A DNA stretch of 63,554 nucleotides, the filler included, from Stramenopiles sp. TOSAG23-6 (lineage: Eukaryota): the NCBI GenBank assembly GCA_900128565.1. It is 39 parts of 39 records of this genome, joined end to end, with 100 filler letters (N's around TTAATTAATTAA, not from the genome) between each part and the next. Parts side by side here need not be neighbours in the genome. Positions count along the whole stretch, not along the records: positions 1 to 1,546 come from LT638896.1; positions 1,647 to 3,191 come from LT638897.1; positions 3,292 to 4,836 come from LT638898.1; positions 4,937 to 6,481 come from LT638899.1; positions 6,582 to 8,125 come from LT638900.1; positions 8,226 to 9,769 come from LT638901.1; positions 9,870 to 11,411 come from LT638902.1; positions 11,512 to 13,053 come from LT638903.1; 31 more parts are not named here. The stretch is one strand, 5' to 3'. A program made the position numbers and the translations under genes. Below are positions 1 to 63,076 of the stretch, piece after piece. The notes beneath the pieces are model-generated. The model was not told the DNA's origin, searched no databases, and saw only the letters and a program-made list of their open reading frames with translations. Each line of letters starts with the position of its first letter. Positions within the stretch are counted from its first letter, which is position 1.

Positions 1-74
1 TTTTTTTTTGAAAANTGNTANGTACNAAANTTACTATGNAAAAAAAANAAAAAAACTGTGTAATAAAAACGTAC

Positions 75-1435
75 ATAATCTGGGCATTCCAAACGATTTA
101 CAGGTCCACGGACTGTTGTATACAAAAAAATGTACATTTTTTTTTGTTAGGTACAACATTTACTATGAAAAAAAAAAATTAAAAAAATTTAAATATGTTG
201 TCACAAAAATTTAGGTATTTAATTTTGAAAAAAAAAAATGAAAATCTTTGTTAGGTACAAAAATTCGTACGAAAATTGTTTTTTAAAATGATTATGCAAA
301 CATACAAGGTATTGAAAATGATTGTTTTACTAGTATTTGCATACAATATCTTAATTTTCTTGTAATTTGAGCAGAAAATGACAAACAAGAAGAACAAATC
401 ATTGAATTATTGGTATTTATTGTCTGTGTAGTGTTACACGATTCGCATATACAATGAAAAATATATAAAAAGAGAAAAAATTAGGTACAAATTTTCCATA
501 TAAAATTTCAAAAAAAATTTCAAAAAAAAATTTCAAAAAAAATTTTCAAAAAAAATGTCAATAAAAAAAATTTTCAAAAAAAATTTTCAAAAAAAATGAA
601 GTGTAAAAAAAAAAAAATGAAGTGTAAAAAAGTACATCTTCCAGCAGGACAATACAGACATCGAGTAGTAAAATGAGTATTATTTTTTTGTGAATTGTCA
701 GATTTCGTGATTTCAGTAGAACACGAATTACAAAAATGTCTTGGACAAAACCATTCATCCTCTGGAATTTCTGATTCACGTAATCCAATGCATGTAGTAT
801 GAAAAAAAAAAGTCAAATTCAAAATTATATTAGGTATGAAATTCATTATGAAGAAAAAAAAAAAAAAAAAAATGGAAATTCATGATGAAAAAAAAAAATA
901 ATGGAAATTCATCAATAATTTTTTTTTTTTTTTAAATTCATGATGAAAATAAAAATGTACATGCCATATGGTACACTGCACCACAACCAATGTATTCACA
1001 TTCAATTAATTCCCCACCATCACCACACACTCCACAGGATGAAAAATGACCAATAGGTAAAATTATATTAGTATTTCGTGATTTTGATGAATTTCTAATA
1101 TTTCGTGTTGTTGATGATCTTCTTGTATTTCGTGTTTTTGAATCATTACTATTTTTATCAAATATTGAAATTTCAGATTGTTCAGCAAAATTAGGAGTAT
1201 AATGATTTGTGACGTCATTTTTTGCTGCTTTTCGATCAATTGCATTTTGTTTTGTTTGTTGTTCAACAAATTCTTTAAATTCAGGATTTTTTAATTTTTC
1301 CTTAAATTCAGAAATTCCTTTTTTTTTCCATTTTTTCTTTTCCAATTTAGTTAATTTATTCCATTCGATTCCTAAAATTTTTGAAAACTCTGTCACTGGA
1401 ATTGACGGATTTTTACGTCTTAAATCAGCACCTGT
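75..1435 (-). CDS. Partial multi-exon chromatin protein: HMG box, PHD-type fingers and probable bromodomain start
   Basis: HMG-like EFSKILGIEWNKLTKLEKKKW. Spliced PHD CGVCGDGGELIEC..CGAVYHMAC|IGL..EWFCPRHFC. Last exon GPVNRLECPDY is bromodomain-like. Interrupted by family introns. Confidence 0.7.
447..635 (-). mobile_element. Family intron, GT...AT
   Basis: aga t|GTACTTTT...TTGTATAT|gc gaa restores CPAGRCESC. Core TACCTAA is present. Confidence 0.7.
792..960 (-). mobile_element. Family intron, GT...AT
   Basis: gca t|GTACATTT...ACTACAT|gc att restores the PHD HMACIGL. Confidence 0.8.
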
Positions 1436-1546
1436 AATGTCAATTGTTATTTTAAAAAAAATAATTTATTTTTGTTAGGTTTCAAAAAAAATTAAAAAAA
1501 ATTAAAAAAAAAAAAAAAAAAATTTTTTTTTTTTTTAAATCAAAAA

Positions 1547-1646
1547 NNNNNNNNNNNNNNNNNNNNNNNNNNNNNNNNNNNNNNNNNNNNTTAATTAATT
1601 AANNNNNNNNNNNNNNNNNNNNNNNNNNNNNNNNNNNNNNNNNNNN
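1547..1646. other. Artificial contig linker (N-run + TTAATTAATTAA + N-run), repeated about 40 times through the window
   Basis: An identical 12-mer with stops in all six frames is flanked by Ns at every junction, so adjacent contigs are not genomic neighbours. Confidence 0.97.
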
Positions 1647-1707
1647 TGTTAGATACAAAATTTTCTATGAAAAAAAAAATCGAAATTCAATTTTGAAAAC
1701 AAACATA

Positions 1708-2575
1708 TATCGAGATTTTACAGTATCAAAGGGCTGGGAAAAAGTTGTCGCCATGACTCCTGCAACTAGAGAAGCCACAATATGCAAAGGCACACCATCG
1801 CTCATATAATTATTAGAGCATAACAACATTTTTGTTTGATCATAAGAAGCTAGTTGGCCGCAGGCTAAAAAGGCAGCTCGTAGCATTGTCACGGATACTC
1901 CACGATAATACCCTTTAAGTCCTTCATCGCGCAAGATTGTACGGAAGGCGTTAAAAGTTGAAGAATATGTTGGTACTTTCCCTTTATGAAGCCCTGTAGA
2001 ATATTTACCGTCAATACTAAGAGACCCCGCTTCTTGTTGTATCCTAATTTTCACCAAGTCGCAGGGATTTGCGAGTGCTGACCCAAGACCTCCCTGTAAA
2101 ATATGATTATAAATTAAGTTAATTTCGGATGATTTTGACAAATATTAATAATAAAATAGTACGCATTTATATTGCTATGACTTACTGTTGTTAGTGCAGC
2201 ACCCATTCTACGAAACAAACCAATATCTTCTGAACTATCTTTGTGAAATAAATCCTTTATCACTGGGTACATACCAAAACGAAAAGAGCTATATCCAAAT
2301 TCTCTTAAAAGTGATGCTTGCAATCCTGGTATCCATAGTCCCCCATGTCTTGCAAATATACCTTCTTCTGCAATGATTCGTTGAGCAGCTCTAGAAAAGC
2401 TTCCATACATTTTGTTTCTTTTTGCTCCAGTTCCTTCCAGTTGTCCCTCAGTTTGTAACCTGATTTTTATAACATCCATAGGATTGAGTAGGGTGCTAGC
2501 AATAGCATTCGATAGTCCCCCAGCAAGAAGTTCCCGAGGGACACGCATTGGTATATCTTCGCTGGAATCTTCCAT
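1708..2575 (-). CDS. Mitochondrial carrier (SLC25, UCP/dicarboxylate-like), 3' truncated
   Basis: Three PxDxxKxR motifs (NPMDVIKIR, NPCDLVKIR, QPFDTVKSR). Canonical intron at 2094-2185. A family intron starts near 1709. Confidence 0.9.
2094..2185 (-). other. Canonical GT-AG spliceosomal intron
   Basis: aca aca|GTAAGT...TTTTACAG|gga ggt joins LTT-GGLGSALANP in frame. No family core motif. Confidence 0.85.
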
Positions 2576-3385: not shown

Positions 3386-4836
3386 ATATGAGCTCGCTTC
3401 AAGTCATGTAAACTTTTTACGTATTTTTTACTACGCGTACGTGGAGTTGATTGAAACATAATTTTGATTTCTCTACCTAATTTTTGTGTGTTTGAATTTT
3501 TGTTTTTTGTACTTAATTTTTGTGTGTTTGAATTTTGTAACTGTAAACACTCTTTCAACTCAATCGCACAAATTTTATTCTCATATAAAGTTACCTGGTA
3601 CTGTGCATGTATATTTTTGAAATATGCAATACATGTATTTACTTTTGTTAGATAAAAAAGTGAACTACAAACAAAATAGTTACACAATATATAAATGTTC
3701 TATAAAAAAAATATTTAAAAAAAAAAAAATCGAAATTGAAAAAAAAAAAATTGAAATGAGTAATACAATAATAATGGTAAAATACATGACGGATATTTTC
3801 ATCAAGGATAGGCAAATGATTACTCTTGGTATTTTTTATCAAATGACTCATGTTATTATACTGTTTATCTATAGAATGATTTTCGGACATTTTCTCTAGT
3901 GTCTCGATTTCTTGCAGTGCAACTAATTTTGCTATTTCTTGTTGTCGTCTATTTAATGTGAACGATATATATATATATATATTTGTTAGGTACAAAATTT
4001 CGTATAAAAAAAAAAATAAAAAAAAATAAAAATAAAAAAAATAACTTATCTTTCTCAATTTTTGTAACTCTTTTTTCTGTAACGCTGACAAACATCTCTT
4101 CATTGGATTAGGGTTAGGGTTCTTCATTGGGTTTGGGCTACTTTGTGTACTATCCTGTAGACCATGTATTTTGGAAAAATATTTCAAAAAAAAATTTTAA
4201 AATTTGTTAGGTACGAAATTTCGTACGAAAAAAAAAATCGAATTTGAAAAAAAATAAAACATACATGTATATCATTCTGTTCTTTGTGTTGATTCATTTC
4301 ATCAGAATTATCTTTTGTATTGGAATGATAAATACTTGACTCAATTGTTCCATGATGTTTGCTAATCGAATGCACTCCTGTAACATTACTTTCTTTAGTG
4401 TTATGTTCAATATTATGTAAAGCTTTGTTGATTTTATGAACTTCTGCCTCAACGGCATGTTCAATATTATGTTCAATATTATGTATTTCATTCATAGCTT
4501 TATGAGCTTCTGCTGCAACAGCATGTTCAATATTTTGTAAGTCATTCTTAAGTTTATGAGCTTCTGCTCCAACGGCATGTTTAATATTATGTTCAATATT
4601 ATTTAACTCATTATTGATTTTATGTGCTTCTGCTCCAACAGCATGTTCAATATTATGTTCAGTATTATGTATTTCATTCTTAAGTTTATGAGCTTCTGCT
4701 CCAACAGCATGTTCAATATTATGTAACTCATTCTTAGCTTTATGAGCTTCTGCTCCAACAGCATGTTCAATATTATGTATTTCATTCTTAGCTTTATGAG
4801 CTTCTGTTCCAATGGCATGTTCAATATTGTGTTCAA
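3386..4836 (-). CDS. Partial multi-exon protein with His-rich 18/22-aa tandem repeats; unknown function
   Basis: About 7 units of EHAVGAEAHK(A/L)KNE(I/L)HNI at 4407-4836. Exons are joined by family introns. Confidence 0.6.
3607..3785 (-). mobile_element. Family intron (diverged), GT...AT
   Basis: cgt cat|GTATTTT...AAATATACAT|gca cag; phase 0 on both sides. Confidence 0.65.
4164..4264 (-). mobile_element. Family intron, GT...AT (consensus-like)
   Basis: ata cat|GTATGTTTT...TTTCGTACGAAATTTCGTACCTAAC...TCCAAAATACAT|ggt cta. Confidence 0.85.
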
Positions 4837-4936: not shown

Positions 4937-6481
4937 TGTTGGTGATGGCCTTCCTACTGATGATCCACAAGACAATGCTCCCTTTCCGAAGAAGCCGACG
5001 TCATATTCCAAATCTTTATTGCAAACGGTTTTTGAGGAACACTTTATATTAAAAAGATTAGCAATCGTGAGTGGTTGTGGAATCTTCTTTGCTTTATGGA
5101 CAGTTTTCTATAGATTTTCAACCATATTCAACATTTTATTCTGGTTATTTTTCTGGTCTGGATTAGCGTCGTCTTGTTCGATCACAGTTCTATTACTCCG
5201 GCGCTGCGATTGTCGGTGCATACCTGGTATACTTTGGCCAGTTTGAGCTTGTAGCATTTTTTATTGCAGATGATTCCATCAAGCCTGGACCAATAGAAAA
5301 ACTTTTGGCACCATCATTTTGGCGCCCTATTTATACTACTGCATTTTCCGCTGCGGCTGCCCATTGGCTGGTGACAATCTATGAGGACTTTCGGGCGCGT
5401 CGTTTCCTCGGAGTAAAAATCGATTCTGAAATTTCTATGAAAGCAAAAGAATCTGATAAAGAACTTGATGTTGAATCAAATCAAAACGTTGCGGAAAGCT
5501 CAACAAAACGCAGAATATTTAGGTTACATTTTACAAGTGATCCGAATCAGTTCATGTTCAAAGCATACGTATGTTTTATATGAATTTCTAATTTAATTTT
5601 CTTTTCATACGAAATTTCGTACCTAACGATTTTTTTCTGAAATATTTTTTCACAATACATGTGATACACCATCTTCTAACAATTATATGCTATTTGTATT
5701 GTCTTTTTACCCACCGTCTAAGTGGCTTATGTTGTATGGGGCTTTTATTTGAGGCACCCGTGGCTATATTAAACTTTCGAGAATTTGCAGTTATTTTTGA
5801 CGATGAATACAATATTTTTAATTGGTTGTTGTGTTTGCCTTCTGGAGCAACACCTATTTTGCAGTCACTTGCAGATATACAAAAGTTACCTCGAGTTAAA
5901 ATGTTTAGAAAAACTTGGGATTTAATATTTTTTTTAACTGTTTGTTGTCGCTTTAATTGTATCTTAATATACTTTTGGGCTGTGATATGTTGGAGTACAA
6001 AAGTAGCAGAAGAAACTCCTGGTATTGTATACTATATATATCATTTTTTTGGTCTTTGTTTTAGTTTTATAAGTCTTTGGTGGTGGGGCTTGTTGACAAT
6101 GTGGAAGAACCAAGATGAATATAGACTAGTTAAGATGGGCGTGTCTCTCAGTAAAAATAATATATCACTTGATACTATTTCTGAAAGTAAGTGTCCGAAA
6201 GCTTGCTGTAACCGATCTAATATATCTGTTTGTGAGGCTAAAACGTCCCGAGAAAACCTTTTAAATGATGAAAGTTCCACAAAAATAAAAAAATCGCCAA
6301 ACCCATCAAAAACTAGATTTAATAAAACGAAAAATGATAAACAATGCTCTTCTAGTACTACAAAGACAAGTGTCGCCAGAACTAGATGTAGTAAATTATC
6401 TACTGCATTAGTGACAAATCAAGAAGAAGAAGAAGAGTCAGAACCTGATCCTTTGGGTGGATTATGCTGGCTCGGAGATGA
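4937..6481 (+). CDS. TLC (TRAM/LAG1/CLN8)-domain membrane protein, partial
   Basis: Spliced KAY|VIHHLLT...GLLFEAPVAILNFR...RF matches the TLC HH..E.P..N.R pattern. The 5' frame change near 5165 is unresolved. Confidence 0.65.
5569..5660 (+). mobile_element. Family intron, GT...AT
   Basis: gca tac|GTATGTTTT...CACAATACAT|gtg ata cac cat; 92 nt, joins two ORFs in different frames. Confidence 0.85.
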
Positions 6482-9423: not shown

Positions 9424-9946
9424 ATATCAGACTAAATCGTTTGAAATGGGGTTGTGTGTTTGAAGTATTTTATAGATTATATCACTTCTATTCGAAACAC
9501 TTGGTTTGCGTGAATGTTGTGTTTTCCTTATAATCACACCAAGAGTGCGAGAAAATATGGGAGATTTTTTTTACTATCAGTAAAATAAAAAATAATAGAA
9601 GTTTTGACCTTTCTTTGTCACTTGTTCTTTTACTGATTGAATATGTTAGACTAAGTAAGTTCATTTAGTTTATTCCTAAGAAATGAAAACAAAATCAATT
9701 ATAAAATCTGTTGAATATAATTTGCAGATTACACAAGCTAAAATTGACCCGATTCAAGCCTTTACAATANNNNNNNNNNNNNNNNNNNNNNNNNNNNNNN
9801 NNNNNNNNNNNNNTTAATTAATTAANNNNNNNNNNNNNNNNNNNNNNNNNNNNNNNNNNNNNNNNNNNNTTTTCAATTTCGAATTTATTTTTCGTACGAA
9901 ATTTTGTACCTAACGATTTTTTTTGAAATATTTTTCCAAAACACAT

Positions 9947-11358
9947 TCTTGGTTTAGCTTTACATTTAAACCCTTCACAAATAATAGGACCATTATTACA
10001 ACATTGTCATATATATTTAAAACCATCTGCATTACAACGGTTACAAAATGATCGAAGTTCTACAGTATCATGGAATATCACAGAAGATGATTTAGATTTA
10101 TCAATATCTCAAGCGGAGCAACCCTATTCAAAAGTAGCCCATAGTCAAATAGCTAAGATAAAAAGTAAAATTTGGGAATTGTGTAATTGTCTTGAAGAAT
10201 CTGAAAATACTTCTTCCGAATGGGATACTAGTGAAAATGGTACCGTCGCACACACAATCAACACTAACTCTAATGAAGTAAACAATACAAATCGACAACT
10301 TGAAAAGGCTTTGATGTATGTTTTATGGTTTTTCAAATTCGAATGTTTTTTCGAATTCGATTTTTTTTTTTATAAAAATATTGTACCTAACGATTTTTCT
10401 TTCAAATATTTTTCCAAAATACATGAATGCTAGATTTTGTTCAGCAGTATTTGCAACAACTGAAGGTAGCTCATTTGGTCATCAAAATTTAGGATATGAG
10501 GCTACTTTTGCTGAATCATGTTCAATATTACATGTAGGTTTGTATTATGCTGAAAATGATGATTATACGTGTTGTATGGATTGTATCTCTGCATGCTCGT
10601 CGAGTTTTGATGTTTTCAATCTTTGTCCTGCAAATATTGTGGTTCTTTGCACAGTTTTACGGGGGATTTGTTATGAAGCAAAATACGAGGATAATGCAGT
10701 AGCTGTATATTACTTGTATGCATCGGCACTTGAAGCTCTTCAACGATTGCTACCTCAAACACCTCGACATCCAAGTTCAACCTCTACGCTGAATCGTCAA
10801 TCCAGACGAAACCGAAACTCAAACGTTAAGATTCCAGTACGTTTTCAGTATGAATTTCAAATTTATTTTTTTTTCGTACGAAATTTTGTACCTAACAAAT
10901 TTCGAATTTTTTTTTTACAATACATGCACTGAGTAAGAACGATTCTTTCTCTGGAATTCCAGGTGTACATGCACTTGGGCTTGCACTTTGCGTGGCATTA
11001 ATTGAAATCATGCCAAGACTTCCACCACCAGTAATCAAAACTCTGTACGTTTTTTTTCAATTTCGACTTTTTTTTTATTTTTTTTTTTTTTGGTATGAAA
11101 TTTTGTACCTAACAAAAAACAGTAATCAAAAAAAGTTTCCAAAATTACATGCAGCACACTTTTGAATCTCTTGTAGAACTAAAAAATGAACTGCAAAGAT
11201 CTTGTTCTGTGTCTGATATAGTCAGTCATAATAAAATATCAATAATTTTAGCTGCAAGGCAACTACTACTTCAATCTACAAAGTCATTTGAAAAATGGAA
11301 TATTTCGTGTTTTGAAAAGTATATGAAAGTCAAGGATCTATCTGAATTGAAAATTCAT
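9947..11358 (+). CDS. Partial multi-exon helical protein, unknown function
   Basis: Four exons read continuously after removing family introns 10316-10424, 10837-10925 and 11045-11150. Confidence 0.6.
10316..10424 (+). mobile_element. Family intron, GT...AT
   Basis: ttg at|GTATGTTTT...TCCAAAATACAT|g aat; phase 2. Confidence 0.8.
10837..10925 (+). mobile_element. Family intron, GT...AT
   Basis: att cca|GTACGTTTT...ACAATACAT|gca ctg. The upstream exon ends in CA, not AT. Confidence 0.75.
11045..11150 (+). mobile_element. Family intron, GT...AT
   Basis: act ct|GTACGTTTT...CCAAAATTACAT|g cag. Confidence 0.75.
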
Positions 11359-13053: not shown

Positions 13054-13216
13054 NNNNNNNNNNNNNNNNNNNNNNNNNNNNNNNNNNNNNNNNNNNNTTA
13101 ATTAATTAANNNNNNNNNNNNNNNNNNNNNNNNNNNNNNNNNNNNNNNNNNNNTTTTTTTTCATACGAAATTTCGTACCTAACGATTTTTTTTTGAAATA
13201 TTTTTTCATAATCCAT

Positions 13217-19554: not shown

Positions 19555-19711
19555 ATGGATTATGAAAAAATATTTCAAAAAAAAAAAAAATGTTAGGTAC
19601 AAAATTTCGTANNNNNNNNNNNNNNNNNNNNNNNNNNNNNNNNNNNNNNNNNNNNTTAATTAATTAANNNNNNNNNNNNNNNNNNNNNNNNNNNNNNNNN
19701 NNNNNNNNNNN

Positions 19712-49619: not shown

Positions 49620-49650
<31 letters not shown>

Positions 49651-49895
49651 GAAATTGAATAAAAAAAAAAAAAAAAAAAAAAATTGACATATTTTTTTAA
49701 AAATAAATGGGTGATTTTTCTTCTACAGTTACATCAAAACTTACTGAACTGCCAATGTCTCAGCCAAGGGCAACTTCACCTGAAACCATTGACCAAAAAA
49801 GTGATAATTATTTAGGTCATTTTGGACCAGTGACGGCGTGTACGTTTTTTTCATAGAATTTTTTTTTTTTTTTTTTTTTGTAGGGGTTTTTTAAA

Positions 49896-49933
<38 letters not shown>

Positions 49934-50543: not shown

Positions 50544-50581
<38 letters not shown>

Positions 50582-50807
50582 TTTAATTTTTAAAATTTTT
50601 TNNNNNNNNNNNNNNNNNNNNNNNNNNNNNNNNNNNNNNNNNNNNTTAATTAATTAANNNNNNNNNNNNNNNNNNNNNNNNNNNNNNNNNNNNNNNNNNN
50701 NTTTTTTTTTTTTCCCAAAAAAAAAAAAATCCAATTTTTTTTTTTATAAAAATTTTTTTCCCAACAAATTTAAATTTTTTTTTTTCAAATATTTTACCAA
50801 AATACAG

Positions 50808-51735
50808 TAAGCTATACAACATCTAAAAAATGTTCAAAATTACTTATAGACGCCGGTGCTGATCTATCAAAGATTCATTTTCGTGCATCTTTAAAGAATC
50901 AAAACATGAATGTATCTTTTATTTTTTTTTTTTAAACAAAAAAATTCGAATTTATTTTTTTTTGAAAATTTTGTACCTAACAATTTTTTTAGATTTTTTT
51001 TGAAATATTTTTCCAAAATACGTGGACAAATTGGACAAAATAATTTTTTATATTCTTCATTTGATGAAACAATAACAGAAATGAATGGATTTGACTTATT
51101 ACGACTGTATTTAATAACACAAAGAAAATTAAAACATTTGAGAATAAAACGAAATAGTTTGAATGTATTAGAACAATCAAAAAAATATAGTACATCTCAA
51201 ACGATGCATTCAAAAATGAGGTATCAAAATAGATTTAGTACGTTTTATTTTTTATTTTTTTTTGAGTTTTTGAATTTTTTGAATTTTTTTTCATACGAAA
51301 TTTTGTACCTAACAAAAAACAAATTTAAAAAAAAAAAAATTCACAATATATGCAATACACCAGTCATCTATGATGTATTTGATGATAGGTGGACAAAAAA
51401 AGAAGTTCAAAAACGTATTCAACAATATACAAAGAACCAAAACAACACAAGAAATCCTAACTTTAATCAACAATATCCACATTTTTCACTTCGAGTAGGT
51501 AAAGGTATTACATCTGAATATCGTGATTATAATCATTCAAAGTCTTTCAAAAGACATTTAAATAGTAGTTCTAGAAGTAGTATCATGAAACGACACTTAT
51601 ATAGTTCTAGAAGTAATACAAAACATTTAAAACAATATTTGCGTTCATTTGCACATGATCAAAATCAAAATCAAAATGTACATCATATAGAAAACAAAAA
51701 AATAAAAGAAATAAAAGAAATAAAAGAAACCAAAA

Positions 51736-51774
<39 letters not shown>

Positions 51775-51783
51775 ATGGATTAT

Positions 51784-51815
<32 letters not shown>

Positions 51816-52116
51816 AACCATCGGCATACTCTTGCAAGATACCGAGTTAAAATACCAAACAGGTTTGCGCGATCGCATGTGGGTATAGATGTACAAAAGT
51901 CAAATCGAATAAAAATGTGGAGACGACAAAATTACAAAAAAACTTTAAAAAAAACTTTAAAAAAAACAAAAAAACAAAAAAATAATGGACAATTTGATAC
52001 AAATCAATTTTTTAGTAAAAAACACCTGGAAAAACTTATAAAAAAACCATTTATTATAGCATGTCAAAATGGTGATTTAGACACCATTGAAAAAATGATC
52101 AAAAATGATGCGACTT
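50808..52116 (+). CDS. Ankyrin-repeat protein with low-complexity insertions, internal exons
   Basis: KLLIDAGAD; FIIACQNGDLDTIEKMI. Family introns at 50912-51023 and 51238-51351. Confidence 0.65.
50912..51023 (+). mobile_element. Family intron ending in GT
   Basis: atg aat|GTATCTTTT...TCCAAAATACGT|gga caa; phase 0. Confidence 0.65.
51238..51351 (+). mobile_element. Family intron, GT...AT (in frame)
   Basis: ttt a|GTACGTTTT...CACAATATAT|gc aat. Confidence 0.7.
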
Positions 52117-52326
52117 GTACGTTTTTTATTTCAATTTTTTTTTTGAAATTAAATTTTGTTTTTTTTTCGTACGAAATTTTGTACCTAACATATTTTTTTT
52201 TTTTAATATTTTTTTTTTCTCCATNNNNNNNNNNNNNNNNNNNNNNNNNNNNNNNNNNNNNNNNNNNNTTAATTAATTAANNNNNNNNNNNNNNNNNNNN
52301 NNNNNNNNNNNNNNNNNNNNNNNNAT

Positions 52327-52425
52327 GTATGTTTTCAGGATCAATTTTAAATTCATTTTTTTTTCGTACGAAATTTTGTACCTAACAAAAACTTTTACTA
52401 AAAAAAATATTTTCCCAAAATACAT
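52327..52425 (+). mobile_element. Family intron, GT...AT
   Basis: at|GTATGTTTT...CCCAAAATACAT|g aaa. The upstream exon is lost at the contig edge. Confidence 0.75.
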
Positions 52426-53781
52426 GAAAGCTACGGATAAAATGAATCGTCTTATGAAAAATGCAGGAAAAAAAATCACCTCACATGTGGGAAAGAATAA
52501 AGATGTTCATTTTTCTTCTAAAACTAAAAGAATGTATGTTTTCATCAATTCTAACTAATTATAGATAATGACGTACCTCAATGTTTTTTTTAATCTACAT
52601 TTTTTTTATAGGAAATTTCGTACCTAACAAATTTGAAAAAAAAAATATACTTTTTTACAATGTGTGGTCGCAACATTTGAAAAAGATTCACATAATTTGA
52701 AACAAGTAACTAGAAGTGGTTTGTCTCTGTTGATGCAAAGTCTTCAGCACGTAGAAAACAAAGCGAGTCTTCGAATTGTTCATTCAACAATATATCAGAA
52801 ACATGTCGCTGTCAAGCATGTACATTTTNAAAATTGAATTTCAAATGTATATATATTTTTCATACTAAATTCCGTACCTAACGATTTTTTTTCGGTAAAA
52901 AAAAAATATATTTTTTCACAATACAGGGACATGTAGAAGAAGATCCCGATCCAACAAAATCAAGTGCAACTCAGCAAAATCTCGCTGCAGCTTCAATTAT
53001 TGTTAATGCTGTGATGGATTTCAATACGGAAGTACGTTTTCATTATGAATTTTAAATTTCTTTTTTTTTATTCAAAACAAAATATACTAAACAAATTTCA
53101 AATTTGATATAATTCCCCAAAATACATGTATTCTACTCTATGGACTGTGCTGCGGAAATTGTACTAGAAGATGGCAAAAATGTTGTAGTAGATACGACAG
53201 ATGATATCTATGGAAAAGAAGCTTCAGAACTTGTATCTGAAGTTGCTGAAGCACTCACTGATGATATATCTGTTGCTGGTACAATGTGTAAAATGGCAAG
53301 CATTGCCTCGTGTGGTACAACCACTGTAGTTGTAGGTATTGGCAAAAGCGCGATACATTTGAAAAATCGTTCAGAATGGGCGTCAGGCGATATCATTCAA
53401 CAAGGGTTTATGTACAGTTTACTTCCTCGAGAGTTATCAGATGTAATTAAAGTTGCTAAAAGTGTAAGCAAAAGCACAAAAGAAAAGGCAACCAATTTTT
53501 ATCATCAAGGTCTGGAAAGTTTTCAAAAAATAAAAAAACAAACCTGGTTTCGCAAGGGTAAAGCAGTAGCTGCTGCAAAAGATCATGAAACACCTAAAAC
53601 AACGAAAAACAATGCGACTGATAGTATCGTACATGAAATGGATGGTGTAACAAAAGAAGCTGATGTAGTTGTGAATGTTGCAACAAAAGTGATTCTAAAG
53701 TGGACCAAAGTCTGGTGTATTTTACGACAAGACACCTTTGCTGTATTTCAGGAAAAGCCAAAAAAAGATAACGCAGAAGAT
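52426..53781 (+). CDS. Multi-exon protein reaching the start of a PH domain
   Basis: KWTKVWCILRQDTFAVF. Continuous frame after removing introns 52534-52665, 52820-52926 and 53031-53127. Confidence 0.6.
52534..52665 (+). mobile_element. Family intron ending in GT
   Basis: aga at|GTATGTTTT...ACAATGTGT|g gtc. Confidence 0.6.
52820..52926 (+). mobile_element. Family intron ending in AG
   Basis: aag cat|GTACATTTT...CACAATACAG|gga cat. Confidence 0.8.
53031..53127 (+). mobile_element. Family intron, GT...AT
   Basis: acg gaa|GTACGTTTT...CCAAAATACAT|gta ttc. Confidence 0.8.
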
Positions 53782-53991
53782 GTATGTTTTATTTTTTTTC
53801 AATTTCGATTTTTTTTCGTACGAAATTTTGTACCTAACGATTTTTNNNNNNNNNNNNNNNNNNNNNNNNNNNNNNNNNNNNNNNNNNNNTTAATTAATTA
53901 ANNNNNNNNNNNNNNNNNNNNNNNNNNNNNNNNNNNNNNNNNNNNAAAATGAAAAAATACACAAAAATTTAGAGCCTTGTATTTGTTCAGG

Positions 53992-54159
53992 TGTTATTAG
54001 TTCCATTGAAGAACCTCAGAGATCCATATTAATGTTTGTTTTAGATATCCTCGTAGACGTTGAGAAATATAAAGACTGTAATTTGATGACTGCAAAAAAC
54101 ATAGCTGTTGTCATAGCTCCCAATCTTTTCCCTCCTCCCACGGAAACACAATTGAAAAA
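53992..54159 (+). CDS. RhoGAP domain C-terminal exon
   Basis: NLMTAKNIAVVIAPNLF. Confidence 0.75.
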
Positions 54160-54660
54160 NNNNNNNNNNNNNNNNNNNNNNNNNNNNNNNNNNNNNNNNN
54201 NNNNNNNNNNNNNNNNNNNNNNNNNNNNNNNNNNNNNNTATATTGTTCATTTTAGATAAAATAAAACAAGTGCCTTAATTATTTTTCTTAACGACACTAT
54301 ACATTTTTTCAGGTGCCAACTTCTGTTCCAGAAGAACCGCCGCTAACTGGCTCAAGTGCTGCGAGTATATATTTATTTTGAAGTTTTGGAAATATCTTTC
54401 CTGCTTGCAGAGTAATAATAATACTAAGTGATATTATTGAAATCAAAATGTTCATTGTTGTCGTTGTGTAATTGATAAATCAAATTTGAAATTGTGCTTC
54501 ATCTTTTTGCAATCTAAATCTGTTTTGTTGTTGTTGTTGTTGTTGTTAACAAGTATTACTCATTTAGTACTGCCACCGGATGTACAAACTATAGCTTATA
54601 CTCATCGAACCGAATCTGAATCTGGTCAGATTTGTATAAAACACGATTAATACAAAGTAA

Positions 54661-55413
54661 ATGGGAAAAAATAATATTGACAGGACTGGTGATGAGGAGC
54701 AAAGGAATATTCGAACTGATGATATGAGTGGGAAAACTTCTGCTAACGGCGTCGCAAATAAAAGGTTCCATACATTGACCCGAGCAATCAGAAAACTTAA
54801 AAAGCCAACAAAAAAGCACAAGTTTAATAAAGGAGTCAAGATGCACATGAGCAAACGTATTTGGATAGAAAAGCATCATAAGGTCCATGATGAACTAATT
54901 GACACTGCGACGTCTGGTGTTGGTAAAAATATCAATAAACATATTCAACTCATCGACGGGAACCGAAAACTTCAGGCTAAAGAACCAAAGTGCATTGTTG
55001 CTGCGAGGCACCGCCAAAAGGTTGTTGACTTTGAAAATGAAGGGATAATGCACTTGTTGTTACGAGTTAAGGAAAGGAAAAATAGGTACCATGGCAATAA
55101 AAATGATAACTGGCATGAACTAATACAACAGAAAAAAATATATAGACAAAAAGCAGTAAAGGCTGCAGTTGAAAGTTATAAACAAAAGATTGAAGAAGAG
55201 AATAAAGTGATACTCGGTCATTTATGCAAAATTAAGTCTTCTTTTTCTGCCGATCGATGGAAAAAAGATTATAAAAGACATCTACATATGCGAAAAGTAA
55301 TGGCTCAAGTTTCAAGACCAAAAAACAAAAAAAAAGCCACGCATAAGTATTCCTTCGTGGCAGGTTCACCCGCCAGTGAAAGAGGGATTCCTGAATACAA
55401 CGCTGATATGGAT
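54661..55413 (+). CDS. CFAP97/Hemingway-like domain protein, partial
   Basis: KIEEENKVILGHLCKIKSSFSADRWKKDYKRH pattern. Ends at family donor 55414. Confidence 0.5.
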
Positions 55414-55566
55414 GTATGTTTTATTTTTTTTCAAATTCGAATTGTTTTTTCATACGAAATTTTGTANNNNNNNNNNNNNNNNNNNNNNNNNNNNNNNNNN
55501 NNNNNNNNNNTTAATTAATTAANNNNNNNNNNNNNNNNNNNNNNNNNNNNNNNNNNNNNNNNNNNN

Positions 55567-55967
55567 CCTTCGTCCTCGGCGCCATATAACATTCCCATAT
55601 TTAGTGCTGCCCCTAAGTGGTGTAGATAGTGCAACCAGGAAACATTTTTGCCTTTTACTATCAAGAAAAGTGTATCGGCAAACTCGACGAACTTGCTCAT
55701 GAAGAACGCCCACACAATTCGCCGAAATGAAGGGTCACGAAATGCAACTGAGCAGTCCTGACTGAATAAAGGCACTCTTTGCACAGCCATTATCATTCCT
55801 ACACAGCACCACAGAGAAAAGAAAACCATCCCCAAGTTGTAAATGAGCATGAGTGGCTTCCAAAATGAAGCGGTGCTTGCTGAGTTCCCGTACGCCCGTT
55901 TCAGCACGGGAACGGCCACCGCGTAGACCGGAAGAGCCAAAAAGCTTGGTTGCCAAAGAACGTCCAT
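55567..55967 (-). CDS. GNS1/SUR4 (ELO) fatty-acid elongase N-terminal half
   Basis: YNLGMVFFS, FFMSKFVEFADTLFL, WLHYLHH. Confidence 0.92.
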
Positions 55968-57186
55968 TGAAATAAACCGTTGGTAAAAGTATAGCTGTTT
56001 GAGATGCTTATTTGAATAAAAGTGCAAGATGTTTTAATTTTCTTTGTTAGTAAACATTTTCAATCGTAGTTCTTATTCGTCAATGCAGTGCAGTATTCGG
56101 CAACTTGAGCAGGTATCACCAATTAGTTTCAACAGAAGATATGTGAAAAAAAATTGTTGTAGTAGTAGTAGCGATAAGTAATAAATGTTGGTGGGCGATG
56201 ATATTCCTATGTAATTTTAATTGAATCATCATCATTTTTCTTCGTCATTCACAACACTTCTTTTTATTATACACTACAGGTATATACCAGGGTACGGTAT
56301 AAATATTATACCTGGGTCCTCGGTATAATACCAAGGTGAAAATACAAAAAAATAATAATTGGACGACCTCGTATTCTTCGATTAGTCGTCTTTAAAAATA
56401 TATGTATAAATACATCAACACAGCAAAGGGATTAAATTTTTTGGTAAAAAAGTCCTCCAAGCTTTCCAAGTACGAGAGTCTCCTAAAGGTTGTTTCTATG
56501 CTATGACCTGTTATAAATGTTATATTAACCACAAGACTTTGATGGAATGACGCATTTTGCATTTCGCAAGTGCGTCATTTTATTGTCATTATTGCCTTTG
56601 TTTGTTGTAAAAAAATAGAGGGCATCTTCGTTTTCATTTACCCTACTATTACCTCTAATCGTACTACACATCAACAAATTTTTGCGCTGAAAAAATAATT
56701 ATCTAATAATAATAAAATTATTTTTCTATTATAAACTGTGCTACTAGTCTATGATGATGATATTTGATAGACTATGTAAATGAACAAAATACATTGAATA
56801 GCTATGAGAGAGATAGCAGCAAACCTAAAAATAATAGTTTTAAAACTTTACGCCTTAACTCGTCTTTAAAAATGATGGTCAGGTCGCGGAACCTGCTCTC
56901 GATACTAGTGAACATCTTTCCACACAAGATCAAAACCTGCGATCAGAACTAATCCTCTTGCTCCCAAAAATATTTTTCCAAATTGTCGGTTTAATCCACG
57001 TGTAATCACTTCTTTCTAGATACCCTTTAACAGTTTTATTCAAGGCAGAGAACGTGTTACTCTCCAACGCGGATAGACTCATTTGGNNNNNNNNNNNNNN
57101 NNNNNNNNNNNNNNNNNNNNNNNNNNNNNNTTAATTAATTAANNNNNNNNNNNNNNNNNNNNNNNNNNNNNNNNNNNNNNNNNNNN

Positions 57187-58559
57187 CAGAAGCAAGCAAA
57201 AATGCTGCTGAGACATATGCGCTTGAAATGGCAATCCATTTGAAGAGAGCAGAGCGTGAACGAAAAAAGAAAGAACTGGAAGCTGAGTTTTCTGGTGTCT
57301 TTGCAGAAGTCACTCAAAAACGAGAACAACTTGGTACATTGGAGCGAAATATTGCAGAAATGGAAATGAATAGGCAACGCAAAGATCGCGAATTCCAAAG
57401 GCTACAACGTAAATTGATGGAATTATTAGAAGAACAAAAGCTTGAGTTAGATAACTTACGAGCCAAAGGAGTAGAGCTTGAGGTTGCTACTGCCACATCT
57501 GCTGCTGCTGCTGCTGCAACGGCATCATCTGCAAAGAAACATGAAGAAAAGACAAAGGCAATTTTTTCGGGTACAGAAGAGTTATTGAAGTTTCAATTTA
57601 TGAGTATGAGTCTTGGATATTTTAATAGTTTGAACATGCTCAAATCATTAAAAGATATGAATGCAGATACAACTGCTAGTGCCATGAAGTCTTCAGCGGA
57701 CACTGCTGCCGCCGCCGCTGCTGCTGCTGCTGCTGCGAATATCCCATCCATGAAACATCTCGGTATTGGGGCAGACGAATTAGTCAGCGCAATGTCGCAA
57801 AAACGAATTATGAATGCTGCTGCAAAGAAAAAGGAAATAGAAGACGCAAAGAAAGCAATGCAAGAATCATTTCCTGATGATGTGCATATATGGAAAGTTC
57901 GTGACGTTGTCCGATGGTTGGATCTACAAATGCTTGGACAATACAAGAAAGCTTTCAAGGAAGCTGCTGTAGATGGTGATTTCTTGATGGAATTAACACC
58001 GGAAGATATGCGAGATATATTGGGTATTGAGCATAGATTACATGTGAAGAAAATAATAACGATGAGAGAAAGATTAAAGCCTTTGACTGCTGCTGAAATT
58101 AGACAAAGGAACGAACTACAGCGAGAAGAACACGCATCACAGTTGAGATCAATGGGTGCTGGTGCTTCAGCAATGCATCGCATATCTGAGACGAAGTCGA
58201 GCAGTGGTGAACCACCACCAACATTAACAACTCTATTTATGCACGTTCGAAATGGTCGTAAAAATAAAGTAGAAACCGGAATTGGTCGAGGATTTGATGT
58301 CAATACTGAAGATGGTCATGGAAATACATTGTTGATTACAGCTGCTCAGCAAGTAAACATTCCAATGTGTGAAATGCTCATTGATCGAGGTGCCAAAATT
58401 AATCATCAAAATTTGCAAGGGAATACTGCACTTCATTATGCCATGGCATATGATCCTACAGGGGATGTTGGGGAATTTCTTATTGCAAAAGGTGCTGATG
58501 ACACAACTGAAAACCAGTGGGGATTATCACCATATGATGGAATTTCAGATGATATGTAA
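57187..58559 (+). CDS. Coiled-coil + SAM + ankyrin-repeat protein, 5' partial
   Basis: SAM WKVRDVVRWL..F..AAVDGDFL; ANK GNTLL, GNTALHYA. Confidence 0.85.
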
Positions 58560-58805
58560 AAAAAACGAATGTGAGGGATTTTATTGTTTAAATAAAAACT
58601 TTTTTAGAGTAATAATTATTTTTTGTATTAAATTTTGTACCTTAAAATTGATAGCTCAGCAAGCAGGCTTCCAAACGGGTCCCCCACGATCGTACTAGCT
58701 GCTCTNNNNNNNNNNNNNNNNNNNNNNNNNNNNNNNNNNNNNNNNNNNNTTAATTAATTAANNNNNNNNNNNNNNNNNNNNNNNNNNNNNNNNNNNNNNN
58801 NNNNN

Positions 58806-59648
58806 GAGGCAGAAGGTTGTATAAGATATCGGCGAGTGTTTAATGCAATTCAACGTCAGGTGGAAGAAGAAGTCAAAACAAATTCAGGTTTAGATAGCGT
58901 TCCTCTCTCTGAAGCGATAGCATCATCAGCAGTAAAAACAGCAATGTATGTTTTTCATCATAAAAAAAGTTTCAATTTTTTTTCATACGAAATTTCGTAC
59001 CTAAACAAAAAAAATATTTTTTTTTTTTTCACAATACATGGACATTGGCGCTAAAGCTATCGTAGTGCTTACACAAAGTGGAGCCACTGCCCGTTTAGTT
59101 GCTAAATATCGTCCAAGTCAACCAATATTATGTCTAACACCATCCACAGACACTGCACGAAATACAAATGGATTACTCCGGGGTGTGACATCGCGTGTTA
59201 TGTACGTTTTTTTTGTACCAAATTTTGTACCTAACGAATTTTTTTTTTTTTTTTTTTTCATTCATTTCAAATTTTTTTTTCATTGAAAATTTTGTACCTC
59301 ATAATTTTTTTTTCTAAAAAAAAAATATGTTTTCACAATACATGAAATCAATGGAAGGTTCAGATGGCATTCTTAGACAAGCAGGTCTGTTAGCCAAAGA
59401 ATTAGGGTGGGTGAATTCAGGGGATCTTTACGTAGCTATTCACGTATGTTTTTTTTTTGGTACGAAATTGTATACCTAACAATTTCTTTTAAATCATTTG
59501 TTTCATCATTTATGTCCTTTTTTTTTTTTTTTAAATTTTTGTTACTTAACAAAACATTGAATGTCTGAAATATTTTTTCATAGTACATGGACAAATTGAA
59601 GGTCTTAGTGGTGAAACTAATTTGATGAAAGTACTAACAGTGTCTTAG
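58806..59648 (+). CDS. Pyruvate kinase C-terminal domain, four exons
   Basis: EAIASSAVKTAMDIGAKAIVVLTQSGATARLVAKYRP..LRGV..GDLYVAIHGQIEGLSGETNLMKV*. Confidence 0.95.
58946..59039 (+). mobile_element. Family intron, GT...AT
   Basis: gca at|GTATGTTT...CACAATACAT|g gac. Confidence 0.9.
59202..59343 (+). mobile_element. Family intron with duplicated core, GT...AT
   Basis: gtt at|GTACGTTT...CACAATACAT|g aaa. Confidence 0.9.
59444..59588 (+). mobile_element. Family intron, GT...AT
   Basis: att cac|GTATGTTT...CATAGTACAT|gga caa. Confidence 0.88.
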
Positions 59649-59651
59649 TTT

Positions 59652-59890
59652 TATGTTTTTTTTTTTAAATAAAAGTAGAAATATAAGACATTTCTTATTG
59701 TATGTTTTTTTTTAAAAAAAAAAGTAGAAATATAAGACATTTCTTATTGTATGGTTTTTAAAATAAAAGTAGAAATATAAGACATTTCTTATTGTATGGT
59801 TTTTTTAAATAAAAGTAGAAATATAAGATATTTCTTATTGTATGGTTTAAAAAAAAAAAATAGAAATATAAGACATTTATTATTGTATGG
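59652..59890. repeat. Five tandem units of about 47 nt downstream of the PK stop
   Basis: TATG(G/T)TTTT..AAA(T)AAAAGTAGAAATATAAGACATTTCTTATTG x5. Confidence 0.85.
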
Positions 59891-60484
59891 TACAATATAT
59901 AAGATATCATATGCTAAAAGTTATAATTCTTGTTCAAATTGATTAATGACGTCATTACTACGGTTTATAAATTGTTGAGCCATTGTCACATGAAAATTCA
60001 ATGCGATTCGTTCGGCGCGTCGTACGTAAGCCAAAACTTTCTTATTCATTGATGCTGAAACGTCACTACATGTTTTTCTATCATTTTCTTCAGAAAATTT
60101 ACCATTATACGCAGGACTTTTAATTTTTTTTTGAATAATTTGTAGAAATTGAGTATATGCTAGAGTTTCATTTTCCTTGGAAACAAATCCTAAGAATGAA
60201 TTGTCTTTATCCCACGAATTCTCTACTTTTGAAAAATCATTTTCAGTAAGATTTGATAAACGAAGGCATGTATTTTGGAAAAATATTTCAAAAAAAAAAA
60301 CTTAAATTTGTTAGGTACAAAATNNNNNNNNNNNNNNNNNNNNNNNNNNNNNNNNNNNNNNNNNNNNTTAATTAATTAANNNNNNNNNNNNNNNNNNNNN
60401 NNNNNNNNNNNNNNNNNNNNNNNGCATAGTACAATACGCGCACTTACACGATATATATACTCTCAAGTAAAGCCTATTAAAGAT

Positions 60485-61066
60485 GTGAATCGAAATAAAT
60501 GTAAAAATGTACAGTTAAAACATATGCGTGTCCCAAGGACACTTGGAGCAAAGACGCATGAAAAGATTGCCATTACCGGAATGGCTTGCCGATTCCCAGG
60601 GAATTCAAATACACCTGATTCTTTTTGGAATATGTTATGTAGTGGATATGATGCGATGTCTGCGAATCCTCCAGCATGGCGTCGTGACCTTGGTGGTGGA
60701 GGTGGGTTTTTGTCGGAAGAAACTATAACTACGTTTGACCCGAAAGCCTTTGGTTTGTCTCCAAATGAAGCTCAGGAGATGGATCCACAACAACGGCTTC
60801 TGTTACAAACAGCGAGAGAAGCACTCGAAGATTCTGGAATGCTACAAAATGATGGTTCTGTTATTGATAATGAAATGGTTGGAGTATACTTAGGTATGAT
60901 GAATTTTGATTATTCGGCGAAAGCTATCGATTCGGAATCACCGTATTCAGTTACTGGTGTTTCAATGAGTATTGCTGCGAATCGTATTTCGTATATATTT
61001 AATTTACGTGGACCATGTTTTGCAGTCGATACCGCTTGTTCATCAAGTCTTGTTGCGATGCACCGG
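60485..61066 (+). CDS. Type I polyketide synthase, ketosynthase N-half
   Basis: IAITGMACRFPG, MDPQQRLLL, ANRISY, DTACSSSLVA. Confidence 0.95.
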
Positions 61067-61939
61067 TAACAGTTGAAACAAACTTTATATTATTATGAAN
61101 CTTGGTATGTCCTTGAAGAATGNTTGAGGCTGCAGAACGAATATCAGGNATTGCCGATTCAACACATTCACTNTGAAATCCACTNGTNACACCAAGTCGN
61201 TTTGCCTTTATTGATTTCGAGTGTAATAAAACAAGNGTNTTATTTATTGNTTCNACTGAACCACTAANTACAACACTTTTAGGACCATTGACAACTGCTA
61301 CAACGACATCTNTGATATTTGCTGAAGCTAAAANTATTTCAANATTTTCCTCAGATTCCCATACAGCTGCCATTGTTCCAGTTTCTGTGCTATNTGANTG
61401 TGCAAGTTTCGACATTGCTTTACCACGAGCCGCAACAAGGGCACATGCCTCAGATAATGTTAACATACCTGCTATACACATAGCGGCAAACTCACCTAGA
61501 CTATGTCCCACTACCGCAATTGGTTCAACACCGAGTTGCTTCTGAATGACTTGACAAAGTGCATACTCCACAGCAAATAATGCTGGTTGTGCGAATGTAG
61601 GATCACTTAAATTTAATGATATGTTTGTATTGCTGGATTCATCGGTATCAAGTTGTTTATATAACTTCGAAACTAGAGAGACTTCCATATACTCAACGAA
61701 GAACTTGTCGCATTCTTCCATTGCATCACGAAAAATAGTGTTGTTCTGGTACATTTGAAAAGCCATATTTGAGTATTGTGCGCCTTGGCCAGTGAATACA
61801 AATGCAACTCTACATGGATTTTGCAATATTTTACCGACTACTACATTACTTTTTGTTTCACTATTTTCTAAACTTTCAAGACTCTTTTGTAGATTATCTA
61901 TTGANTCTGTTACNATAGCAGNACGNTNTGCATGTCGTT
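61058..61939 (-). CDS. Type I polyketide synthase, acyltransferase domain
   Basis: FVFTGQGAQ, AQPALF, GHSLGE, VNGP. Confidence 0.95.
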
Positions 61940-62041
61940 NNNNNNNNNNNNNNNNNNNNNNNNNNNNNNNNNNNNNNNNNNNNTTAATTAATTAANNNNN
62001 NNNNNNNNNNNNNNNNNNNNNNNNNNNNNNNNNNNNNNNCG

Positions 62042-63076
62042 ATGAATCAAGTAGTTATGACAGATACTGGAACGAATGAAAGCCAAATTATTGCGTTGGG
62101 AGTGCCCGGGGTGAGTTCGAGATTGAGGCATGGTCGATGGAAGCCCTTCGAACACAAAAGATTCGTTGATGGTATAAAGATACATGGTAAAGAATGGAAG
62201 AAAATTGCAGATGTTGTTAACACAAGAACAGTTGTACAGATTCGAACGCATGCCCAAAAATACTTTCTAAAATTGGAAAGAGATGCCTTGAGACGCGCTA
62301 ATGGCGGAGTGCTTCCAAAGAATCTTCCTGCTAGTAAAGTAAGTACGAAAAAAAATAAAAAGTCAAAGCCTTCCCCCAAAAAGAAGATTGTGATGAAAAA
62401 AAGAAGAGAAAGTGCTAAGAAACGAAAATCAGGCACTAATGATATGTCTACTGCTGTCAGTCGCGGTGGATACATGTATTCTGATTATAATCCAAGTATG
62501 CTTTCACTCATGGCACCTAACACGAAAACAACGTTTAATCCAAGAGATGGGAGTCCTACAGCAGTGTCTGATATTAGCCTTCCCTACCAAATGGATATAT
62601 CCTCGGGTTCAAAACGACACAAAACTGACACTTTACAACTCAGTGATAGAGTGAATGACTCTGCTACCGAACTCTCTGAACTTTTCAGTTGTCCAATTAC
62701 GAATAATTCGGGTATGGAGAGTATAGTTACAGGAGAAACAAATGATGGAATGCTCACAAATTGGCTCAATGTATGTTTTATTTTTTGTTCAATTTTGAAT
62801 TTATTTTTTATAGTCAATTTTATACCTAACAAATTTTAGTTTTTTTTTTTGAAATATTTTTCCAAAATACACGATGTTGGAACATCAGCTCCACTTGGGT
62901 TACGATCCGACACAGAAGGATCTTCAGATAATAACTCTGACACTGTATCTAATTTTCAATCTAATGGAAACTCCATATCAGCTGATTGTGGCAAATGGGA
63001 AGAATCTTGGTCACAGCCATTTGATTTTGGTGCTTCGTTTGACAAACTGCCCATGTTAGAAATAGAAAATTCGTAA
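62042..63076 (+). CDS. MYB-related (SHAQKYF class) transcription factor
   Basis: GRW...EHKRF...TRTVVQIRTHAQKYF. Two exons joined by family intron 62771-62872. Confidence 0.9.
62771..62872 (+). mobile_element. Family intron ending in AC
   Basis: ctc aat|GTATGTTTT...TCCAAAATACAC|gat gtt. Contains an in-frame TAG. Confidence 0.8.

Follow-up and report, generated by a model that had tools for sequence, protein, structure and literature searches.

The AG dinucleotide at the end of introns is among the most constant signals of eukaryotic genes. In introners of the Micromonas type, as set out in an excerpt of PMC11282704, the element brings one splice site and the duplicated target the other, and splicing removes the element together with one copy of the target. 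The available portion of the work on Fritillaria borealis describes transposon-derived introns that take their 3′ site from a repeated exonic TAC, that commonly end in AC or AT, and that are handled by the major spliceosome with diverged U2AF paralogues. GT-AT, in the parts of the literature at hand, is a rare boundary of U12-type and of a few U2-type introns; it accounts for 7 of the 66 non-canonical U12-type introns in a table of PMC1557818, an excerpt of which reports it as splicing-competent in vitro. Here we describe a family of short repeated elements with GT..AT ends in a stretch of DNA of 63,554 nucleotides, filler included (the window), from the assembly GCA_900128565.1 of Stramenopiles sp. 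TOSAG23-6. Both the family and the AT termini of its members are real, and the sequence evidence for reading its members as introns makes that reading well supported. From the same evidence, the element is probably an introner, meaning a short non-autonomous mobile element that would act as a spliceosomal intron when inserted in the sense orientation. Tentatively, and with somewhat more doubt than belief, we propose that the commonest intron class of this organism is a mobile element with GT..AT ends, removed by the major spliceosome, in which duplication of an AT target, and not an AG, sets the acceptor.

The window is made of 39 contigs of 1515-1546 nt each, with spacers (N..TTAATTAATTAA..N) between them and a GC content of 0.23-0.41. 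The core motif of the element gave 36 matches with at most 3 mismatches and none when the sequence was shuffled 100 times, the 3′ motif gave 20 matches against 0 in shuffles, and GTAYGTTTT occurred 31 times where 2.9 occurrences were expected. A profile of 11 copies searched with nhmmer returned 62 matches at E<0.01, some of them opposite-strand matches to the palindromic core, and these correspond to 50 distinct loci, to which three further diverged copies spotted by eye can be added. A preliminary description of this DNA had counted about 65 copies by hand and recommended a profile-based count; within the window, our count comes close to that figure. The roughly 50 copies are 89-199 nt long. 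Many contigs terminate within a copy; the assembly thus breaks at the element repeat.

Alignment of 18 copies revealed three conserved blocks in an element with a mean column identity of 64%. The donor block, GTAYGTTTT, was scored in 37 copies and is nearly invariant (G1 in 35/37, T2 in 36/37, A3 in 37/37, G5 in 32/37, T6 in 37/37, T7-T9 in 33-36/37). The core block (..TTTTCRTACGAAATTTYGTACCTAAC), of which GTACGAAATTTCGTAC is a perfect 16-nt palindrome, terminates in a CTAAC branch-site motif that reads TACCTAAC. The distance from CTAAC, positioned from sequence alone, to the 3′ end has a median of 38 nt and lies between 24 and 46 nt in 22 of 25 copies, which falls within the U2-type range. 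A T-rich tract follows, and then the conserved end of the element (..CAAAATAC); in this 3′ block (..CAAAATACAT), A(-2) is found in 34/36 copies, T(-1) in 33/36 and C(-3) in 30/36. The 36 scored 3′ ends are 31 AT, 2 AG, 2 GT and 1 AC, and two more AG-ending copies lie outside this set. These counts agree with the predominance of AT that had been described (27 AT, 3 AG, 2 GT and 1 AC among 33 copies) and bear out the association of a U2-like donor and a CTAAC branch motif in one repeated element. Both motifs are conserved well above the element average. The copies and parts of copies, with one canonical intron, are the following.

1647-1708, minus strand: 5′ part cut by the contig end, donor ATATGT, in a mitochondrial-carrier gene
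2094-2185, minus strand: canonical intron outside the family, GTAAGT..TTTTACAG (..CAG), 92 nt, in the mitochondrial-carrier gene
4164-4264, minus strand: copy #1, GTATGT..ACAT, 101 nt, phase 0, CAT upstream and G downstream, terminal inverted repeat detected
5569-5660, plus strand: copy #2, GTATGT..ACAT, 92 nt, phase 0, AC upstream
9871-9946, plus strand: 3′ part cut by the contig end, ending in ACAT
10316-10424, plus strand: copy #3, GT..AT, 109 nt, phase 2
10837-10925, plus strand: copy #4, GTACGT..ACAT, 89 nt, phase 0, CA upstream
11045-11150, plus strand: copy #5, GTACGT..ACAT, 106 nt, phase 2, CT upstream
11880-11972, minus strand: copy #6 in a tyrosinase-like gene, GT..AT, 93 nt, phase 0; the downstream exon is a Pfam Tyrosinase match
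13154-13216, plus strand: 3′ part ending in CCAT
13818-13907, plus strand: copy #7 in a Ulp1/SENP-like gene, GT..AT, 90 nt, phase 2
14064-14159, plus strand: copy #8 in the gene of #7, GTACGT..ACAT, 96 nt, phase 2
16437-16502, plus strand: 3′ part ending in ACAT
17575-17749, plus strand: copy #9, two cores and a shortened 3′ end; GT..AT removal fails to join the longest frames
17887-17960, plus strand: 5′ part with a GC donor (GCACGT)
19555-19611, minus strand: 3′ part ending in CCAT
32789-32860, minus strand: 5′ part, AAT/GTATGT (here and below, the slash marks the putative cut)
33356-33554, minus strand: copy #10 in the ABCD-type transporter gene, GTACGT..ACAT, 199 nt, phase 0, gap-free against P0009 and P0023
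33742-33839, minus strand: copy #11b, diverged, in the ABCD-like gene, GTATCT..ATAT, 98 nt, phase 2
33903-33992, minus strand: copy #11 in the ABCD-like gene, AAG/GTATGT..ACAT, 90 nt, phase 2, with R as junction codon against L/L/I
34056-34174, minus strand: copy #12, GT..ATAT, 119 nt, junction at the edge of the homologue alignment
34261-34315, minus strand: 3′ part ending in ACAT
37679-37734, plus strand: 3′ part ending in ACAT
39154-39208, minus strand: 3′ part ending in ACAT
45312-45481, minus strand: copy #13, two cores, GT..AT, 170 nt, phase 0
46787-46916, plus strand: copy #14, two cores, GTACAT..ACAG (GT-AG), 130 nt
49840-50020, plus strand: copy with donor GTACGT and end ATATAT, boundaries from motif and profile only
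50090-50231, plus strand: diverged copy with GTATGT donor, GTACCTAAG core and ..GCAG end (GT-AG), frame by eye
50284-50380, plus strand: copy with A at +1 (ATATGT) and an extra ATAT past the 3′ end
50912-51023, plus strand: copy #18, GTATCT..ACGT (GT end), 112 nt
51238-51351, plus strand: copy #19, GTACGT..ATAT, 114 nt, phase 1, TA upstream
52327-52425, plus strand: copy at a contig start, GT..AT, 99 nt, with 2 upstream exon nt only
52534-52665, plus strand: copy #21, GTATGT..GTGT (GT end), 132 nt
52820-52926, plus strand: copy #22, GTACAT..ACAG (GT-AG), 107 nt
53032-53127, plus strand: copy #22b, diverged, GTACGT..ACAT, 96 nt, AA upstream
53782-53840, plus strand: 5′ part, GAT/GTATGT
55414-55466, plus strand: 5′ part, GAT/GTATGT
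58946-59039, plus strand: copy #23, pyruvate kinase intron 1, GT..AT, 94 nt, phase 2
59202-59343, plus strand: copy #24, pyruvate kinase intron 2, GT..AT, 142 nt, mis-modelled with GT..AG in P0008
59444-59588, plus strand: copy #25, pyruvate kinase intron 3, GT..AT, 145 nt, with a TAG 5 nt ahead of the AT end
60268-60323, minus strand: 3′ part ending in ACAT, in a minus-strand gene adjoining pyruvate kinase
62771-62872, plus strand: copy #26, GTATGT..ACAC (AC end), 102 nt

The coding content of the window is eukaryotic (pyruvate kinase, 14-3-3, kinesins, an ABCD-type transporter, a mitochondrial carrier and others), and the copies sit in unrelated host genes: pyruvate kinase, the ABCD-type transporter, the mitochondrial carrier, and tyrosinase-like, Ulp1-like and WD40 genes. 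A crude test of the open reading frames (ORFs) flanking the 50 loci gave 27 sense copies and 1 antisense, the latter being downstream of a same-strand ORF. The statement that every copy within a gene is in the sense orientation agrees with the ratio of 27 to 1 but is not confirmed for all copies, as 22 of the 50 loci were undecided. We then considered 23 complete copies, picking the longest open frame independently on each flank. Results showed that removal from GT to the end of the element joins the longest flanking frames in 21 of the 23, compared with one third by chance, with phases 0, 1 and 2 scoring best in 13, 1 and 9 copies. The two failures are #9, which carries a double core, and #12, for which two upstream frames are almost equally long (47 and 46 codons).

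Homologues gave the same picture at the protein level for two genes. The model of pyruvate kinase with three introns has no gap at any junction when compared with five homologues (P0003-P0007). Removing four introns from the ABCD-like gene leaves a frame of 298 codons that is free of stops, the other two frames having 15 and 28, and the junctions of #10, #11 and #11b fall within gap-free blocks relative to P0009 and P0023, at 43-48% identity. In total, six family junctions (3 in pyruvate kinase and 3 in the ABCD-type gene) are covered by gap-free homologue alignments. Together with the frame test, these junctions support the earlier claim that GT..AT removal restores proteins in three phases. 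In the Ulp1/SENP-like gene, a check against PDB aligned the exon upstream of #8 with SENP1 up to its last residue (..HWCLAV), while the downstream exon, 44 aa searched alone, found no PDB match; SENP1 presumably continues in register across this junction. Per-exon Pfam scans matched single exons only and hence provided no test of junctions. The host genes of #4, #5, #19 and #22b have no recognisable family, and a protein search with the 218-aa exon at 53128-53781 returned no match.

To explain these features, we favour a mechanism in which an element beginning with GTAT and ending with ATAC would insert into a palindromic target resembling C/AT/G, with duplication of the AT. The element would supply a yeast-like donor (GTAYGT and a T run), the 16-nt palindromic core, CTAAC, the T-rich tract and the end ..CAAAATAC. 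The acceptor CAT/ would then consist of the final C of the element and the second copy of AT, in the place where ordinary introns have CAG/. Splicing would proceed by a 5′ cut at /GTAYGT, branching at CTAAC about 38 nt before the end, and a 3′ cut after ..ACAT, most plausibly by a major-type spliceosome tolerating U at the last position. The GTATGT donor, the CTAAC motif and the branch distance of 24-46 nt fit the major spliceosome.

Insertion sites are consistent with this mechanism. The dinucleotide ahead of the donor is AT in 23 of 37 copies, the background being 10% (p ~2e-14), and G follows the intron in 22 of 36, a typical copy being (C)AT/GTATG....ATACAT/G. Moreover, a 10-nt terminal inverted repeat (CATGTATTTT/AACATACATG) spans the boundaries and reaches into the exons, by 3 bases at the 5′ end and by 1 base at the 3′ end.

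Comparison with the described systems shows that the element falls among known kinds, namely introners and the non-AG acceptors of Fritillaria and of U12-type introns, and is not categorically new. With the introners of Micromonas pusilla, stramenopiles and dinoflagellates, which resemble miniature inverted-repeat transposable elements (MITEs), it shares the many near-identical short introns, the unrelated host genes and, apparently, the inverted-repeat ends. There, the co-opted 3′ site is AG and the introns are canonical, whereas here a repeated AT, a putative duplication, would give CAT/. Fritillaria introns, by contrast, mostly start with AG and are very diverse, and of their termini have only the AT 3′ end in common with this single dominant family, which has a strong branch motif and, instead of a non-GT 5′ end, GT in 35/37 copies. 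Vertebrate U2-type GT-AT introns, such as that of DGCR2, conserved between human and mouse, combine an optimal donor and a pyrimidine tract with an AT end in the excerpt of PMC1557818; unlike the element here, they are single cases, neither a family nor mobile. The nonconventional introns of euglenids and the introners of Amoebophrya, as far as the available excerpts go, also have non-canonical borders, junction repeats resembling target duplications and a probable MITE origin, but they lack GT and the pyrimidine tract and rely on pairing of their ends. The element here has a canonical donor, and RNAalifold found 0 consensus pairs in the 18 copies, by which a conserved RNA fold or pairing of the intron ends was rejected. 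Relative to U2-type introns in general, the sense orientation, the restored frames, the donor and the branch motif are all present, and terminal AG is found in only 2 of 36 copies.

The view that a spliceosome able to do without the terminal G would be something new does not hold, as GT-AT is known as a rare U12-type and U2-type boundary and AT or AC ends are common in Fritillaria. Our search of full-text literature, with supplementary files outside its scope, found no description of an intron family dominated by GT-AT, and with the same scope no such introns in the literature on single-cell genomes of marine stramenopiles. The part available of one such genome paper mentions introns only in its methods. 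A survey of introners, in the section accessible to us, accepted AG or AC as 3′ sites and dropped families with unfamiliar sites unless they were supported by RNA.

Could the family instead be removed by the minor spliceosome, U12-like or diverged, so that the organism would have two intron classes and two machineries? GT-AT is a documented U12-type boundary (excerpt of PMC1557818), and the human and mouse GT-AT introns and those of Physarum polycephalum share with the element, in the sources as available, extended donor and branch motifs and a class apart from GT-AG. In agreement with this idea, conservation of the donor reaches +9, GTATGTTTT matches RTATCCTTT at 7/9 positions and one copy has GTATCTTTT, while in our own comparison TACCTAAC matches TCCTTAAC at 6/8. 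Two discrete classes, GTAAGT..CAG and GTAYGT..CAT, are also found within one gene. On the contrary, the CC that defines U12-type donors at +5/+6 is GT here (G in 32/37, T in 37/37), so that the family has GTAYGTTTT and TACCTAAC at a median of 38 nt where U12-type introns have RTATCCTT and a close TCCTTRAC branch site; that distance compares with 9-12 nt in Physarum and up to about 45 nt in general, according to the portions of the sources that give it. In those sources GT-AT is a small minority of an already rare class. The extended conservation may reflect only the common descent of repeat copies, and RTATCCTTT, with 0 occurrences in the window against 1.55 expected, is uninformative. Removal by a minor spliceosome, which would call for small nuclear RNAs complementary to GUAUGUUUU and UACCUAAC, is in our judgement unlikely.

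The register of the cuts raises a second possibility. GT..AT ends had been described as such, and the ends of the element are indeed as claimed; what had been overlooked is the AT ahead of the donor, because of which the register in those 23 copies is not fixable from sequence. Removal of GT..AT, of TG..CA or of AT..AC would there give the same mRNA. In the two thirds of copies that are preceded by AT, the introns could therefore be AT..AC, each cut lying 2 nt further upstream; A at +1 with C at -1 is the only further compatible pair that is well known. C(-3), present in 30/36 copies, would complete the AC end. The informative copies are those with differing flanking dinucleotides (#2, #4, #5, #11, #14, #19, #22, #22b, #25 and #26). 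In the shifted register, 14 of 37 copies would start with AC, CA, CT, AG, TA, AA, TT or GT. G1, T2 and A3 are found in 35-37 of 37 copies, against 28/37 and 29/37 for the two upstream bases, and placing the cut at /ATGTATGT would, from the known 5′ splice-site consensus, shift the hexamer that pairs with U1 and U6 out of register. Furthermore, the upstream base of #2 and #25 differs silently, as if it were exonic. Considering that conservation is much stronger in the donor hexamer than in the two bases ahead of it, that the upstream AT is missing in 14 of 37 copies and that the change in #2 and #25 is exonic-like, the GT..AT register appears favoured, and AT..AC introns look quite improbable.

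Several observations weigh against the GT..AT reading. Introns with a terminal U are poorly used by the major spliceosomes that are known. The only register-informative junction covered by homologues, that of #11, gives R with GT..AT where three homologues have L, L and I, and would give M in the -2 register, in which the AC end of #26 also becomes a silent exon change. The AT repeat does not covary: the 14 copies that lack the upstream AT and have a scored end all terminate in AT, and AT lies upstream in each of the 5 copies with a non-AT 3′ end. AT may consequently belong to the element itself, in which case the upstream AT would reflect a preference for certain targets. Counted by eye, only 3 of 11 copies of the GTACGT type carry the upstream AT. 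The frame is not restored at #9, and #12, the fourth ABCD-like junction, lies only at the edge of the homologue alignment. Finally, a protein search with pyruvate kinase exon 2 had as best match a EukProt record at 73% identity, and no transcript-derived protein of this organism matched that exon.

Two other explanations were rejected. That ordinary AG acceptors near the AT end are used, the proteins carrying small indels, is very improbable: an in-frame open AG lies within -45 to +60 in 12 of 21 non-AG-ending copies, and #26 has a candidate at -33, but 9 of the 21 have no such AG, the homologue alignments show no gap at AT in any of the six junctions that they cover, and in pyruvate kinase intron 3 use of the TAG would shift the frame and swap the conserved ..HGQIEGLSGETNLMKV.. 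for an unrelated tail, the conserved C-terminus being obtained only with the AT cut. There is equally little to be said for an absence of RNA removal, with elements excised from DNA like the internal eliminated sequences of ciliates or lying as transposons in dead genes, since the direct AT repeats around a short AT-rich element with inverted ends resemble TA-bounded eliminated sequences only superficially, while the bias of 27 to 1 for sense is unexpected both for excision from DNA, which is independent of orientation, and for random insertion, the donor and branch motifs are conserved above the element average, the genes are intact once the elements are removed, with stop codons that look standard, and about 50 insertions in 58 kb would kill most genes.

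The problem of the acceptor is also visible in an existing gene model. A close-match search with pyruvate kinase exon 2 found only a genomic gene model, P0008, of 70 aa, whose source label begins with GSMAST32; it corresponds to 59038-59360 of the window and is identical to one exon. Its start ATG is formed by the last AT of the intron and a G, and it reads into pyruvate kinase intron 2, from which it exits through a GT..AG pair into the wrong frame. As this model forces GT..AG and fails to keep the frame, the annotations of the organism probably mis-model the introns of the family.

The organism also has canonical introns, as shown by the carrier gene, which contains both a family copy and a GTAAGT..CAG intron (2094-2185, minus strand), the only canonical one confirmed by reading, its downstream exon beginning at position 16 of the Mito_carr profile. 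GTAAGT is not enriched in the window (25 occurrences against 27 expected), and a scan of ORF pairs for ordinary introns was too noisy for a count. That the family is the dominant intron class, as had been proposed, is true of the window, where it outnumbers ordinary introns, but rests on 58 kb of short, repeat-broken contigs.

If the GT..AT reading is true, recognition of the last intron nucleotide has been re-specified or relaxed, with U in the place of G, while a yeast-like donor and branch site were kept. Dozens of introns per 60 kb would then isolate 3′ splice-site recognition as the sole changed variable and make it testable how U2AF35 or ZRSR2, Prp8, Slu7 and Prp18 read the last nucleotide, as well as how the first and last nucleotides pair. 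It would also be a clean example of the target specificity of a transposon setting a splice-site rule of its host. In practical terms, the gene models of the organism would be systematically wrong at these introns, and the predicted proteomes of such organisms, with the analyses derived from them, may be truncated at copies of the family.

Some variants of the element were also observed. Tandem double branch-site cores are present at 17575-17749, 45312-45481, 46787-46916 and 59202-59343 and suggest that one element inserted into another or that part of an element was duplicated. Polymorphic sites of the core (CG/CA, CG/TG) and of the donor (GTACGT/GTATGT/GTACAT) are all changes from CpG to TpG or CpA, which suggests that CpG is hypermutable in this genome, perhaps through methylation of cytosine; in the core, most copies retain the middle CpG. 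Both scored AG-ending copies (46787-46916 and 52820-52926) have A at +5 (GTACAT); with two cases only, this may be chance, may mark a subfamily or may hint that +5 and the last base are coupled. In the copy at 50284-50384, a GT..AT pair 4 nt downstream yields an identical mRNA (..NDRPLYSFQAHDY.., a WD40 repeat), and both splice sites may have undergone a compensating shift.

Outside the genes discussed so far, a contig at 47454-48977 looks mitochondrial, with five clustered tRNA genes and a 244-aa nad4-like ORF; an Rfam scan of the window found 5 tRNAs only. At 60424-61939, a single contig of 1.5 kb carries a ketosynthase-like ORF on the plus strand overlapping an acyltransferase-like ORF on the minus strand, which may be a chimera of genome amplification or two genes. 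Sampled words of 50702-60323 are shared by small DNA runs, which may be the source, and by seawater-metagenome runs (0.41 for X3 and 0.21 for X4); six RNA runs share 0.07-0.14 each, which is no evidence of expression or habitat. Labels, the source label of P0008 among them, suggest that the organism is an uncultured marine stramenopile, a placement based on labels rather than on a tree.

A metagenome scan with the core motif identified a single locus, on the JGI metagenome contig L001, where the copy reads ACAT/GTATGT..ACAT/G and is followed 79 nt on by a GTAAGT donor. In the window, in-frame runs of AACCCT, a telomere-like hexamer that reads NPNPNP, were seen at about 33000-33200 (minus strand), 4090-4130 (minus strand) and 46950-47150 (plus strand), and the NP-rich stretch of the ABCD-like gene is an insertion relative to the homologues P0009 and P0023. 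AACCCT repeats also occur on L001, in non-coding DNA at about 2290-2330.

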